Virus record (IMG/VR): IMGVR_UViG_3300042888_001941
Coordinates: 32,001 to 96,000 of that record
Strand: one strand, 5' to 3'
DNA from: a virus
DNA length: 64,000 nucleotides
Position numbers and translations under genes: made by a program. Each line of letters begins with the position of its first letter. The stretch's first letter is position 1. This document shows positions 14,468 through 54,435 of the stretch, piece after piece. A model generated the notes under the pieces. That model ran no database searches and was not told the origin of the DNA. It saw only the letters and a list, made by a program, of their open reading frames with translations.

Positions 14468-14931
14468 AAAAAGATGAATTGACAGAGAAGTACGCTCAAA
14501 AAATAGAGCCAATCCTTCCACTTGCTAAACGAGCGTATGGTCTTCGCGGACAAGCAACTCCTGAGCATAAGGCAAGCGAGAAGTATACAGCACTATTGAA
14601 AGAGTATTACTCCAAGGGTGGATCTCTTGTTGCGCTTGCAGAGAAGTTAGGTGTTGCCTATTCAGGTATGCGCCGTCGTATCTTTGCATCTTCAACACCT
14701 CCCGCCCCGCGTAAACCACGTTCGCAGTCTACCGAGGAGTCCACTGAAAAGACGCTCACAAGGGTTCTAAAGGCCAAAGAGACTTCAACCGAGCGTTACC
14801 ACGAGGAACTATACAAAGCCTACCACAGCGGCGTCTCCCTTGCGGTGATAGCAAAGGGTTTATCCCTTAGCTCATCTGCTCCTCTTTACTACGCGGTGCA
14901 GCGTCATACTGCTCGTTTAAGCGAAGAGTAA
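14464..14931 (+). CDS. tandem HTH-like DNA-binding protein
   Basis: Two repeats 'YSKGGSLVALAEKLGVAYSGMRRR' and 'YHSGVSLAVIAKGLSLSS'. Confidence 0.65.
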   Translation: MKKDELTEKYAQKIEPILPLAKRAYGLRGQATPEHKASEKYTALLKEYYSKGGSLVALAEKLGVAYSGMRRRIFASSTPPAPRKPRSQSTEESTEKTLTRVLKAKETSTERYHEELYKAYHSGVSLAVIAKGLSLSSSAPLYYAVQRHTARLSEE

Positions 14932-15050
14932 CGTGAGAAAACTTTTAGCCGCGCCTTTTTGGTTTATTCACGATAAGGCTGACTGGTTTAATCGAGTAGG
15001 GTGTTATATTGCTTTGGGTAAAAACTGGCGAACACGCTGGGATAACTAGC

Positions 15051-15263
15051 ATGAGAAGCAAATGGTCACCTAAGACAAAGCGTCCTCACGTATGCAGGAA
15101 ACCTAGTTACCTAAGTGTTCTCCTTCATGGCGGTCTCGCTCTAGGTCTTGATCTTCGAACTTCTCGTATCTGGACCTGCGGTGACTGTAACAAGTCCTAT
15201 CGCCCATACTGGGCGCAACTTTCTGGAAATGACTATGTATGGAAGGAAGTACCCACCTCGTGA
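15051..15263 (+). CDS. small hypothetical protein with CxxC
   Basis: 'HVCRKP..IWTCGDC'; stop overlaps next start. Confidence 0.55.
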   Translation: MRSKWSPKTKRPHVCRKPSYLSVLLHGGLALGLDLRTSRIWTCGDCNKSYRPYWAQLSGNDYVWKEVPTS

Positions 15264-15487
15264 TGTGGTCCTGGATTCTTGCGGCAATAGGTGTAACTGG
15301 AATATACTTCGTTGGTCGCAAGACTATCTGGGGTTGGCTTATTCTTCTCGTAAACGAGTGCGTGTGGATTGCATACGCGCTTGCTACCAAGCAGTACGGG
15401 TTTATCTTTATGGCAACCGCTTACGCGGCCGTCTACGTTAAGTCCTACATGCTCTGGCACAAGGAAAACAATGAACAAAACGCGTAA
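15263..15487 (+). CDS. small PnuC-like membrane protein
   Basis: 'WSWILAAIGVTGIYFVGRKTIWGWL..WIAYA..QYGF'. Confidence 0.6.
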   Translation: MWSWILAAIGVTGIYFVGRKTIWGWLILLVNECVWIAYALATKQYGFIFMATAYAAVYVKSYMLWHKENNEQNA

Positions 15488-15635
15488 GCTCTTTAGCGTA
15501 GAAACAGGTGCAGGAACCTCGGATAGCTGGGGCTTCTCCTTTCTCTTCTGCGCTTATGACAAATCCCTTGCGGTGACGATTTTGCACTGGTACGCCTACA
15601 TCTCTATCTGGCCAGAGAAGGTAGATGAGAAGTAG
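15471..15635 (+). CDS. small hypothetical protein
   Basis: MNKTRK start overlapping previous gene. Confidence 0.45.
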   Translation: MNKTRKLFSVETGAGTSDSWGFSFLFCAYDKSLAVTILHWYAYISIWPEKVDEK

Positions 15636-15771
15636 ATAATATAGAATAACTAAGTTCCCGCGATGATGAGACACGTGTCCGCGGGTGCGCGCGATTCCTA
15701 CCACCACACCGGAAATCGCCGCGCGCGACCTGAGTAAGTCGTTAAACTGCTCACTAGTTTATAGTCCGCTC

Positions 15772-15990
15772 ATGGCAATGATGTTTGGTGATATTACCCC
15801 AACAACTAAGGATGATGTTTGCGCCATATGCAGCTTCCGCGCTGCGGTTAAGGTTCATTTTAAGCAAGGAAATCTTGTCACGTTTTGTGACCTACACGCG
15901 TTTGTTAACAGCGAGATAATATGGAAAAACGCCCAGGCAGTCTATGACCGCGTGGACGTTTTACCTCCTAGAGAAGAACTAGATAACTAG
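15772..15990 (+). CDS. small Zn-finger-like protein
   Basis: CAIC...FCDLH; TATAGT just before ATG. Confidence 0.55.
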   Translation: MAMMFGDITPTTKDDVCAICSFRAAVKVHFKQGNLVTFCDLHAFVNSEIIWKNAQAVYDRVDVLPPREELDN

Positions 15991-51643: not shown

Positions 51644-51659
51644 ACCCCTTCTTAACGGG

Positions 51660-51698
51660 AAACGCCCGCCTTCTTCGGAAGAGCGGGCGTTTTCTTTT
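51660..51698 (+). terminator. intrinsic terminator
   Basis: AACGCCCGC-CTTC-TTCG-GAAG-AGCGGGCGTT-TTCTTTT. Confidence 0.88.
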
Positions 51699-51760
51699 AA
51701 GATAAAAAGCTGGATTTATAGTATAGTATCCCCTAGTGTCGCGCTAGATGAGAGAGACCC

Positions 51761-53206
51761 ATGCCTATAGATTTTCCTAATAGCCCGTCGGTTAATGATG
51801 AATTCACATCAGGGTCGACTACTTGGCGCTGGGAAGGAACAGTCTGGAAAGTCGTTCGCGACTTTGCACCTACAGGCGCTACAGGTCCTACCGGTGCGCA
51901 AGGAAACACAGGAGCAACGGGTCTTACTGGCGTAACAGGAATTGACTGGTCTGGCTCATGGGACTTTGTTGCGTACGCAGTTGGCGACGCAGTTCAATAC
52001 AACGGAAGTACATACTATTGCGTCACCGCGATTTCATTAGGTGATAGCGCATCACACATTCCAGGGTCATCAGCGCGTTGGGAACTGCTTGCTGCTAAAG
52101 GCTCAACTGGAGCAGTAGGCAACACAGGAGCTGTTGGCGCGACAGGCGCAACTGGCTTAACAGGAGTAACTGGTGCACAAGGTGTAACTGGTCAAACAGG
52201 CGCAATCGGTAACACAGGCGCGCAGGGAAACACAGGTGCTACTGGTTTAACAGGCGCAACTGGTCTAACAGGAGCTACTGGTTTAACTGGTGTAACAGGC
52301 TCAACAGGAGCTGAAGGACAGTTTGCAGTTGCTGCAACAACTCCGCCATCGTCTCCAGCAGAGGGTGACGCGTGGTATGACTCAGCGTCTGGCAACCTAT
52401 ACATTTATTATGATTCATATTGGGTTGAAGCTGCGTCAGCAAATGACGGCCCAACTGGTAACACAGGCTCAACTGGCGCAACCGGTGTAACAGGAGTTAC
52501 AGGTGCGCAAGGAACGTCAATTGACTTCAAGGGAAGCGTTGCTAACACAACAGCGCTAAATGCAATCACTGGTCAAGAAGTAAATGATGCTTACATCGTA
52601 GATTCAGATGGAAATCTTTATGTATGGAATGGCTCTACCTGGACAGATGTAGGACAGATTGTTGGACCTCAAGGAAACACAGGTGCAGTTGGTACTACAG
52701 GTCCTACTGGGGCTCAAGGTAACACTGGAGCCATTGGAAATACTGGCGCTATTGGAAACACAGGTGCGCAAGGTGAAACTGGTGTCACAGGTCCTACAGG
52801 TGATGACGGCCAATTCTCTACAGTAGCAACAACACCTCCTGCTGCTCCTGAAGCTGGAGATGCATGGTACGACTCTGCATCAGGAAACGTTTACATTTAC
52901 TATGATGGTTATTGGGTAGAGGCTGCATCTGCTAACGATGGTCCTACAGGTAACACTGGAGCAACCGGAGCTGTCGGTAACACTGGCGCAACGGGTGTAA
53001 CTGGCGCGGATTCAACTGTCGCAGGTCCAACTGGACCTACAGGTTTAACAGGCGCAACTGGTCTAACAGGCGCAACTGGTTTAACAGGAGCTACTGGAGC
53101 AACTGGTCCTACTGGCCCTACTGGTGACGCAGGCGCTACAGGATCTACCGGCCCTACAGCAAATATTGATGATCTTACAATAATGACAATTATGAGCGCG
53201 TACTAG
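51761..53206 (+). CDS. collagen-like fibre protein
   Basis: '[17 protein letters not shown]' N-terminus; two 'GDAWYD..YYD.YWVEAAS' modules; short hydrophobic tail '[12 protein letters not shown]'. Confidence 0.85.
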
Positions 53207-53242
53207 AATAAAATACATAACAAAGGAAAGGCGTAGTAACTA

Positions 53243-53560
53243 ATGGCTACAACTTCAAAGGTTCTTTTTCGTGGAGCGGCGACAACTAACACCGCGACTA
53301 CGTTGTACACTGTCCCTACGACAAGCACAACAACGGTCGTCACTAGCATCATTGTGACAAACACCGCAGCGTCCGGCGCAACATACACACTTGCGATTGA
53401 CGGCGTTGCTATTGCAACAACCGTTTCTATCGCCGCAAATGATACTGTCATCATGGATCTTAAGCAGGTCATTCCTGCAAACGCAACACCAAAGATTGTC
53501 ACCGGTGGAGCATCTGCAACAACAGTCAACTTCCACATTTCAGGAGTTGAAATAGTCTAA
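53243..53560 (+). CDS. small beta-rich adaptor-like virion protein
   Basis: 'TLYTVP..TTVVTSI.VTN..IAANDT..FHISGVEI'; paralogue of 57929. Confidence 0.7.
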   Translation: MATTSKVLFRGAATTNTATTLYTVPTTSTTTVVTSIIVTNTAASGATYTLAIDGVAIATTVSIAANDTVIMDLKQVIPANATPKIVTGGASATTVNFHISGVEIV

Positions 53561-54435
53561 TGTCCATTCAACGTCTCTCGAACTCGGGACAGAGTGGATT
53601 TCGCTATAAGTCTCTTATAGCTGGGATCACGCCTGTTGCGTCGGTGCCTACGGTTGGCACTGCCACCGCACTCACCTTCAGCACCGCGTCTGTTACGTTC
53701 ACAGCGCCTGGTGCCTACGCTGGAGCGACGTACACCGCAACATCAAGCCCAGGCGGCCTCACTGGGACAAGCGCGTCTTCACCTATTACCGTTTCAGGAC
53801 TTTCAGAAAACACCGCGTATACCTTTACTGTCACCGCGACGAACGCTACTGGAACTTCAGGAGCAAGCGCTGCATCAAACTCAATTACTACACCTTCTGC
53901 ATTTACACCTGAGAGTGGATACGACTCGTTGGCTACTGTAACGTTGTCTTCGTCAGCGTCATCAGTTACTTTTTCTGGTATTCCTAGTGGGTATAAACAT
54001 CTTCAAATTCGTGGAATTATCAAAGACGTTACAACTGGGGCAGCGGATTACGATGCGCTAAGAATTCAATACAATGGCGATACAGCCACAAACTATTCTT
54101 GGCATTATCTTAAAGGCGAAGGCGTAGGTTCTGGCGGAGTTGGACAAGCATCTAGTTCATCTTACTTATGGAGCGGCACAGTAATACGTTCTGGAACTGG
54201 TCAGACTTCTGCATTTTCTACTTCAGTAATTGATATTTTGGATTATGCAAATACATCAAAATACAAAACTCAACGTTGGCTAAATGGTACAGAATTCAAT
54301 GCTCTTTACCCTTGGGTAGGGCTTGGATCTGGATTGTGGCAATCAACCTCCGCAATTACTTCTATTAAAATGTATATGGATACAGGTGTTAATTTTGCTG
54401 AGTATTCACAATTTGCACTTTACGGGGTGAAATAA
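53560..54435 (+). CDS. type A tip protein with an inserted Fn3 domain
   Basis: 'YTATSSPG..ITVSGL...YTFTVTATN' plus 'YKHLQIR..ILDYANTSKYKT..FALYGVK'. Confidence 0.75.
   Translation: MSIQRLSNSGQSGFRYKSLIAGITPVASVPTVGTATALTFSTASVTFTAPGAYAGATYTATSSPGGLTGTSASSPITVSGLSENTAYTFTVTATNATGTSGASAASNSITTPSAFTPESGYDSLATVTLSSSASSVTFSGIPSGYKHLQIRGIIKDVTTGAADYDALRIQYNGDTATNYSWHYLKGEGVGSGGVGQASSSSYLWSGTVIRSGTGQTSAFSTSVIDILDYANTSKYKTQRWLNGTEFNALYPWVGLGSGLWQSTSAITSIKMYMDTGVNFAEYSQFALYGVK

Follow-up and report, generated by a model that had tools for sequence, protein, structure and literature searches.

The Chi word of E. coli is G-rich and co-oriented with the replication forks. A Chi is normally in excess in the host chromosome as well as in a phage that uses it, and it attenuates the nuclease of the RecBCD/AddAB-type enzyme by which it is recognised. 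Phage genomes can also be loaded with Chi, the described examples being the E. coli lambdoid phage LLS and the Pseudomonas phage MD8 (Genome Res 2025, PMC12315714). In the part of that report used here, MD8 carries 32 copies of the host-type (Pseudomonas) Chi, which share a single orientation and gather close to one end of its genome; the rule stated there is that Chi lies on the strand that presents its 3′ end to the incoming enzyme (PMC12315714). Here we analyse a polar word, the asymmetric octamer YGCGGTGA, in a stretch of 64,000 nucleotides (the window, to which coordinates refer unless a genome position is stated) that forms bases 32,001–96,000 of a single 136,434-bp contig of 47.8% GC, the IMG/VR record IMGVR_UViG_3300042888_001941. 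A sequence-only reading of the window had proposed that this word is a directional signal, independent of gene direction, a proposal that is borne out by counts and by a two-domain polarity; codon choice shows in addition that the word is under selection. The word is a real, conserved and selected polar genome signal, and it is carried by a clade of large, lytic-looking, uncultured freshwater actinophages.

The 27 copies listed by hand in that reading, 18 on the plus strand and nine on the minus strand, are all exact in position and strand. Dinucleotide shuffles of the window yield a mean of 3.08 matches and at most 8, with none of 100 shuffles reaching 27. Eight of the 18 plus-strand copies do run on as GCGGTGACA (...GACA), as had been noticed, and there is indeed no reverse copy between 14,841 and 31,355. 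The whole genome holds 48 copies of YGCGGTGA, 25 on the plus and 23 on the minus strand. A codon-preserving shuffle, suggested earlier as a check, confirms the excess: 300 shuffles of the whole genome, with the proteins and the per-gene codon usage of our own crude gene calls kept, give expectations of only 3.6 (plus) and 4.2 (minus). For the genome between 46 and 64 kb (window 14–32 kb) the same procedure predicts 0.80 plus and 0.39 minus copies, with maxima of 4 and 3, against 17 and 0 observed. When all 65,536 octamers are ranked by over-representation against 200 codon shuffles, TGCGGTGA and CGCGGTGA come first and second, and words overlapping these two rank 4th, 5th, 6th, 13th and 19th.

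The word is also sharp. Within the dense block no variant that differs from GCGGTGA by a single letter is in excess, plus-strand copies numbering 0–5 against 17 for the core. The 161 GCGGTGA sites pooled from four genomes (the window's own, G000, and the whole relatives G001, G002 and G003) give the consensus logo YYGCGGTGAH, and an extended form, CCTGCGGTGACAG, is frequent in G000. Collagen-like repeats were masked in the search of the genomes for polar words; masking of repeated 12-mers was unsuitable, since it would have removed nine true sites of the extended form.

Judged by its genes, the source genome is that of a phage. Comparison of 58 ORFs (open reading frames) of the window with PHROGs and of 65 further ORFs with Pfam, a subset of all ORFs, identified a terminase large subunit, a portal-like protein, capsid and tail genes and many collagen-like tail fibres, together with a class II-type ribonucleotide reductase (RNR), two WhiB proteins, a family A DNA polymerase, a primase/helicase and a small serine invertase. 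The genome also has one tRNA-Gly. The first ~150 bases of the contig are repeated at its end, which points to a circular assembly. Among named relatives the closest is DSL-LC01, an Actinomycetia phage assembled from a metagenome (primase 78% identical), followed by 190-kb Microbacterium phages at ~51%. The window stretch was found in 24 lake metagenome runs, eight of them with at least half of its words, and contigs from four lake-water runs carry it in long pieces with few or no differences; one of these four may be where the record came from. An RNR search of IMG/VR returned 582 relatives, from which 80 loci were fetched. G001, G002 and G003, the three whole relatives fetched for comparison, are collinear with G000, and their alignable DNA is 71–72% identical to it. 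The motif-bearing clade has a GC content of 45–48%, against 53.6% in DSL-LC01.

On the circular map of G000 the copies fall into two opposed domains. The plus domain, from genome ~39.7 to ~74.8 kb (window ~7.7–42.8 kb), holds 18 plus copies and a single minus copy, and the remaining 101 kb hold 22 minus and seven plus copies. Density is ~1 per 1.9 kb in the former and 1 per 4.6 kb in the latter, a ~2.5-fold difference. Sites that agree with the strand of their domain (concordant sites) number 40 of 48 in G000, 38 of 42 in G001, 19 of 24 in G002 and 24 of 26 in G003, or 121 of 140 overall; the plus domains of the four genomes together contain 54 plus copies and two minus copies.

Gene direction does not account for this arrangement. 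Copies fall in plus-strand genes, in minus-strand genes and between genes, as the sequence-only reading had it. By our own simple gene calls the 140 sites comprise 61 sense, 52 antisense and 27 intergenic copies, so transcription does not set the strand of the word; within the plus domains alone there are 19 sense and 25 antisense sites. In sense the word reads Ala-Val-x or Cys/Arg-Gly-Asp/Glu and in antisense (Val/Ile)-Thr-Ala or His-Arg, all reading frames that avoid the TGA stop being in use. The dense block runs across plus-strand genes, spacers and minus-strand genes (three paralogues of about 570 aa, a nuclease-like ORF and a cupin). Copies 6395 and 6640 are sense within a minus-strand gene (6195–6854), and two copies outside the window are antisense in a small ORF rather than intergenic.

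The layout is conserved in close relatives. The 14 loci nearest to the window by RNR (86–92% identical) have no copy on the RNR-sense strand and 123 on the other, which corresponds to the plus strand of the window; 13 of the 14 have 3–16 copies each on that strand, whereas none of the 66 more distant RNR loci has more than three on either strand. The dense block recurs in 13 of these 14 nearest loci and in G001 and G003, and against codon shuffles GCGGTGA is the top 7-mer in G001 and the third in G003. Of 30 aligned sites, 13 are retained in G001 (background for random octamers 13.3%, p = 5e-5), and in G003 the figure is 6 of 17 (background 10.5%, p = 0.006). The other sites are lineage-specific: individual sites turn over whilst the layout persists. 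Beyond the clade, neither DSL-LC01 nor the 160-kb relative G005 nor the Microbacterium phage A3Wally shows an excess of the word or a comparable polar word, A3Wally having 16 copies against 19 for the control.

Codon choice reveals selection at the DNA level. The four genomes were pooled, so that the cases are not independent in phylogenetic terms. Where Ala-Val precedes a codon with A as its first letter, it is written GCG-GTG in 35 of 141 concordant instances but in only one of 42 discordant instances (Fisher p = 6.5e-4). For (F/L/I/V)-Thr-Ala the spelling xTC-ACC-GCR is used 27 times out of 94 in the concordant and seven times out of 248 in the discordant orientation (Fisher p = 3.5e-11), and (C/R)-Gly-(D/E) contexts spell the word in 22/38 and 3/12 cases, respectively. 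Synonymous choice thus spells the word at roughly ten times the rate when it would be concordant. On this evidence, neither coding nor composition nor a silent old inversion explains the pattern. The landmarks of the layout within the window are collected in Table 1.

Table 1. Landmarks of the YGCGGTGA layout in the 64,000-nt window
Feature	Position	Strand	Basis or remark
Last three minus-domain copies before the switch	2644, 6395, 6640 (2644..6647)	-	Exact match
Divergence point, AT-rich and non-coding; putative replication origin	7640..7990	.	Repeats, AT content
Dense block of 17 plus copies and 0 minus copies, ~1 per kb	14841..31355	+	0.8 expected by codon shuffle
Single discordant copy inside the plus domain	38091..38098	-	Exact match
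Last plus-strand copy, antisense in ORF 40492-41217	40693..40700	+	Exact match
Convergence interval; candidate terminus or physical DNA ends	40701..44802	.	Flanking copies
First five minus-domain copies (44803, 45799, 46968, 52023, 53831)	44803..53838	-	All antisense in plus-strand genes

Two switch points had been proposed, with a serine recombinase assigned to the second. The switch points stand, with divergence at ~7–8 kb and convergence at ~31–45 kb, but the link to the recombinase finds no support; its gene encodes a small DNA invertase set among oppositely oriented tail-fibre cassettes, by context a switch of Mu/P1 type. In G001 the divergence is narrowed to less than 1 kb, between a minus copy at 95,218 and a plus copy at 96,182, equivalent to ~39.4–41 kb in G000. 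The spot is flanked by divergent genes (6991–7455, minus; 8282–12175, plus) and contains four TACTAGG/CCTAGTA elements and a 33-nt pyrimidine tract, and the most AT-rich 300 bp of all G000 start at genome 39,659 (window 7,659). By AT content the syntenic spot ranks first in G002 and DSL-LC01, second in G003 and outside the top five in G001. Its composition and repeats make it a likely origin; it could also be simply a strong divergent promoter region. At the other switch, the convergence interval of G000 contains the primase/helicase gene (41162–43795, minus), a 230-bp divergent spacer and two small ORFs, and in G001 the last plus copies lie in or just after the primase gene, with minus copies resuming beyond the tail-fibre genes. 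Residual GC skew at fourfold-degenerate sites, calculated with the coding-strand effect removed and the motif bases masked, peaks near the convergence in all four genomes, the maximum in G000 being at genome 69.5 kb.

Three of the seven discordant plus copies of G000 form a tight trio outside the window, at genome 16.07–16.47 kb (G000:C1:16069-16479, locus L084). They sit in or just upstream of an ORF of 162 aa with two helix-turn-helices (15943–16431, minus), which has the portal-like gene on one side and the terminase gene on the other. G001 retains two of the three exactly, and a similar trio is found near the terminase gene of G002. A packaging site is one possible meaning of the trio, a second and local convergence another.

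Strong enrichment, indifference to genes, divergence at an origin-like site and convergence elsewhere are, for a G-rich octamer, the signature of Chi and of KOPS (the FtsK octamers) on bacterial chromosomes. Chi had been listed among possible analogues, and it proves to be the closest: the word is likewise G-rich and co-oriented with the forks that would leave the AT-rich spot. We therefore favour, tentatively and with rather less than even confidence, a reading of YYGCGGTGAH as a Chi-like signal for a host helicase–nuclease; in this reading we infer the enzyme that reads the word, the origin, and the terminus or ends. The reader would be a DNA-end-processing enzyme of the actinobacterial host, of AdnAB, AddAB or RecBCD type, which would recognise the word on one strand and, on meeting it from the 3′ side, would cease to degrade the DNA and either turn harmless or promote recombination. 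The copies point from the origin-like spot (~7.7 kb) to the convergence by the primase gene (~41–45 kb), so that the word would always be in its active orientation for an enzyme that loads at a fork after breakage or at ends generated close to the convergence. The Chi strand rule implies as much: with plus copies lying left of the convergence and minus copies right of it, all would face an enzyme that enters at ends in that zone, and they would likewise face enzymes that travel from broken forks back to the AT-rich spot. The densest cluster, with ~1 copy per kb, would guard one side of the convergence zone. Even a sugar island (25,992–29,444) that is nearly without homologues in the relatives has three concordant copies (27252, 27773 and 28988).

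Several points weigh against a Chi-like signal. RNR relatives in bacterial genome contigs provided only distant or probably mis-binned records as host clues, and a deacetylase-like protein of the phage matched the sampled genomes at only 38–46% identity, indicating no host. In two complete actinobacterial genomes of 1.3–1.4 Mb the forward copies are evenly spread with no strong polarity, a fragmented genome gave 14 versus 19 for same-strand neighbours (by hand count), and another has 34 plus versus 55 minus copies in 540 kb. In high-GC Actinomycetia the word does exceed a reversed-word control, both in 401 genomes sampled from the class and in 301 belonging to the order of Actinotalea; the 401 include ten genomes flagged as unpublished, on which no claim rests. 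Preferred codons (GTC/ATC-ACC-GCS) are the simplest explanation of that excess, which is no evidence for a Chi-like reading. To our knowledge no Chi is known for actinobacterial AdnAB, and RecC family PF04257 was found in none of five small actinobacterial genomes searched. In the portion of the account drawn on here, AdnAB is called a putative Chi-independent machine (PMC5314763). Literature searches turned up no article in which a KOPS or Chi word is named for actinobacteria, though this does not show that there is none.

The phage itself supplies further objections. It has recombination genes of its own (AAA_24, DUF669/SSB-like, a PD-(D/E)XK nuclease and a RecE-like fragment). Its physical DNA ends are proposed from the layout; the public runs exist as assembled contigs, and those of four runs showed no molecule ends, which contigs would not reveal in any case. 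The start of the A3Wally record offered no usable landmark for the ends. In G002 the excess is weak (24 sites, with GCGGTGA outside the top ten) and site retention, at 3/13, is not significant (p = 0.2). The skew minimum lies at ~121–130 kb in G000 coordinates, among structural genes and away from the divergence point, and in a regression of the skew the domain term is small (+0.058 +/- 0.021); the skew thus supports the convergence only, and is confounded by gene-specific codon usage.

The same polarity might instead serve the phage replisome, an explanation that we consider unlikely. The word would then be a template site for the primase/helicase (41162–43795), placed on the lagging-strand template of forks leaving window ~7.7 kb. 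Such a role would suit the flip of polarity at an origin-like, AT-rich repeat region conserved in synteny, the position of the primase/helicase gene at the convergence and the coincidence of the residual GC skew maximum with it. By established replication geometry, a plus-strand word to the right of the origin does lie on the lagging-strand template, and among primases of broadly this type there are some that depend on a short word with GTG in the template. A specification of 7–10 bases is, however, far greater than that of known primase sites, a ~2.5-fold difference in density between domains would be odd for priming sites, and the skew minimum lies away from the divergence. Moreover, the DSL-LC01 primase is as close to that of G000 as the G002 primase is (78% versus 77%, with G001 at 83%), and its DNA polymerase is 83% identical to that of G000, yet DSL-LC01 lacks the word. 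The word follows the low-GC sub-clade and not the replication proteins, which favours a reader set by the host over the phage primase.

Somewhat less probable again is a site for a strand-specific binding or nicking protein encoded by the phage, with T5-like single-strand interruptions or a genome-wide operator set as examples. Strand specificity and a sharp word of 7–10 nt would suit such a protein, and the word is limited to a sub-clade sharing a few genes that are not found in DSL-LC01 or G005 (tblastn, E <= 1e-5). These include a 200-aa protein with a sigma-70 region-4 helix-turn-helix (genome 26231–26833) and small ORFs at genome 18399–18857, 24302–24547, 27024–27326 and 46132–46467. No nickase or HNH gene was found among clade-specific genes, and the small nuclease-like ORF at 22329–22625 is present in DSL-LC01, G005 and G408 too. 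The nicks of T5 are on a single strand whereas the word changes strand, and operator or stoperator sets follow transcription, which these sites do not.

A host defence system reading an asymmetric site (Type III or Type ISP restriction, or BREX-like) could in principle shape orientation, but this is very improbable. The word is short and asymmetric, a quick change of specificity would fit its restriction to a sub-clade, and the EcoP15I sites of phage T7 have a single orientation; on the other hand, targets should be avoided rather than enriched six-fold, and both orientations on one molecule would give no protection against enzymes needing inverted pairs. Least credible of all is a passive by-product, whether of an old inversion in a genome with a one-strand word, of codon or amino-acid bias or of internal gene repeats: the RNR block can invert relative to its flanks in this phage group (as in G005), and repetitive collagen-like and Gly-rich coding DNA in G000 inflates related words such as GCGGTGG, but the excess vanishes in codon-preserving shuffles, the ~10-fold concordant synonymous choice contradicts a passive origin, the flanks of the copies are unrelated, four genomes at ~70% identity share the layout despite turnover of sites, and the inverted segment once proposed is contradicted by a dense block that is collinear and in the same orientation in G001–G003, by RNR and flanking genes in the same relative order in the motif-free DSL-LC01, and by a polarity maintained through codon choice.

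A Chi-like signal of the host thus remains our preferred reading. It is possible, if doubtful, that the word is the first Chi-type word of an actinobacterial end-processing machine (AdnAB or a relative), or else a phage-autonomous polar signal of an undescribed kind. If the former were true, the word would have come to light through a clade of freshwater phages, as yet uncultured, whose genomes are loaded with it in a bipolar layout from origin to end, and the recently described class of Chi-loaded phages would no longer be confined to Proteobacteria but would include large, lytic-looking phages of bacteria that abound in lakes. The AdnAB literature cited here (PMC5314763) raises the question whether end resection in actinobacteria responds to a word like Chi, and for this the clade offers a concrete candidate of 7–10 nt with a predicted active orientation. 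Should the reader be a phage protein, the word would be a new kind of polar genome signal. In either case the layout offers a sequence-only route to proposing origins and termini or ends in uncultured phage genomes.

Other words with a strand bias or an excess were seen in these phages. The promoter-like words GATATAAT (2 plus, 15 minus), AATTATAT and CCTGATAT are among the top excess words of G000 against codon shuffles and follow blocks of minus-strand genes; DSL-LC01 has an analogous word of TGTTATAAT type, plus an excess of the palindrome CTCGAG. Raw k-mer counts are dominated by tail-fibre repeats such as GCAACTGG (93 plus, 10 minus). Among RNR-linked loci, TGGCGGA has ten copies on one strand (plus) and none on the other over ~20 kb in each of L019 and L036 (also in L018 and L054), all of them fragments; in this sub-clade it occupies the strand opposite to that of YGCGGTGA in the window's clade. 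GCCGTTC was considered as a polar word of G005 and rejected, being a local cluster of nine copies in 5 kb rather than genome-wide. In G005 (the IMG/VR record of L022) the RNR gene, at 46.7–48.7 kb, is inverted relative to its flanks, and a block homologous to window 8–15 kb adjoins the primase gene, showing that this region rearranges within the phage group.

The small serine invertase (37130–37789) lies among tail-fibre genes (32035–39552), beside a tail-fibre-assembly-like ORF (32982–33344) and a collagen-like fibre of 1125 aa (33341–36718). Cassettes of phrog_2295 flank it in opposite orientation, at 32035–32838 (minus) and at 37832–38701 and 38698–39552 (plus). From this arrangement the locus looks like a host-range switch of the Mu Gin or P1 Cin type; an inverted-repeat search of 31.5–40.6 kb found no clean recombination site, only similarity of Gly-rich coding DNA. 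A second array of tail-fibre type occupies 46208–63638, with three collagen-like fibres (46208–53206) followed by at least six paralogous phrog_2295 proteins of 440–460 aa.

The sugar-nucleotide and glycosyl-transfer island (25992–29793) comprises a glycosyltransferase, two nucleotidyltransferase-like ORFs, a methyltransferase-like ORF and a cupin. The four ORFs at 25992–28007 and 28791–29444 have no homologue in six compared genomes except for a weak (38%) match in G003; the cupin (29446–29793) has homologues in G001 and G002. The whole island carries four plus copies of the word (27252, 27773, 28988 and 29553). Three tandem minus-strand paralogues at 16860–22138 encode Ala/Thr-rich proteins of 569–575 aa, the third of which (20426–22138) has a signal-like N-terminus and no homologue in the compared relatives. 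Elsewhere in the genome, a 403-aa protein (G000:C1:104467-105678, minus; L086:10467-11678) is 79–84% identical across the motif-bearing clade and 30% identical in DSL-LC01. It has no Pfam or functional PHROG match, and its language-model features resemble those of viral clusters containing Glyco_trans_1_2 or the T4 DNA glucosyltransferase family (score 0.96, as a lead only). Together with the adjoining thymidylate-synthase-like, dCMP deaminase and MazG/dUTPase-like genes, this predicted resemblance suggests that the phage DNA may be hypermodified.

How, then, does the word compare with known polar signals? Primase template words, such as GTC in T7 and GTG in the archaeal plasmid pRN1, resemble it in that they are expected on the lagging-strand template and hence to be polar about an origin, but the known ones are of 3–5 nt and not conspicuously enriched. 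The nick sites of phage T5 are likewise a short word that marks one strand of a large phage genome; they lie on one strand throughout, with few major sites, whereas the word described here flips strand between domains. The stoperators of cluster A mycobacteriophages are 13–14 bp long, follow the direction of transcription and serve a temperate-phage repressor. Like the word, they are asymmetric sites in many copies across an actinophage genome, inside genes as well as outside them; in the word, though, the information resides in ~7 fixed and 3 degenerate positions, and the window yielded the small invertase but neither a repressor nor an integrase cassette. An analogy drawn earlier with stoperators fails, since the orientation of the 140 sites ignores transcription.

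KOPS and SRS, the 8-mers of FtsK and SpoIIIE, are G-rich and gene-independent, flip strand at the origin and converge at the terminus (PMC3384302 and, for the portion used here, PMC13277299). They differ in serving the segregation of cellular chromosomes. Such words converge on a dif/Xer site and are read by a translocase gamma domain; the recombinase near the convergence here is a serine invertase, not Xer. No FtsK-like translocase was found among the phage ORFs scanned (58 of the window against PHROGs and 65 others against Pfam, a subset of the total), and PMC3384302 does not mention actinobacterial taxa.

The Chi of LLS and MD8, as far as the portion of the report cited at the outset describes it, provides the nearest parallel. 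There too a G-rich word of ~8 nt is present in many-fold excess, in a near-single orientation per domain, inside genes regardless of coding, clustered toward one place on the map and specific to a host group. The differences are in sequence (GCTGGTGG or GCTGGCGC rather than YGCGGTGA), in layout (one orientation on a cos genome rather than two opposed domains on a circular map) and in gene content, since phages of the LLS class lack recombination genes and the present phage has them. The Chi systems are also set apart by the host, here of a phylum without a known Chi. By this comparison the signal, with its putative reader, would best be filed as a variant of the Chi-loaded-phage phenomenon.

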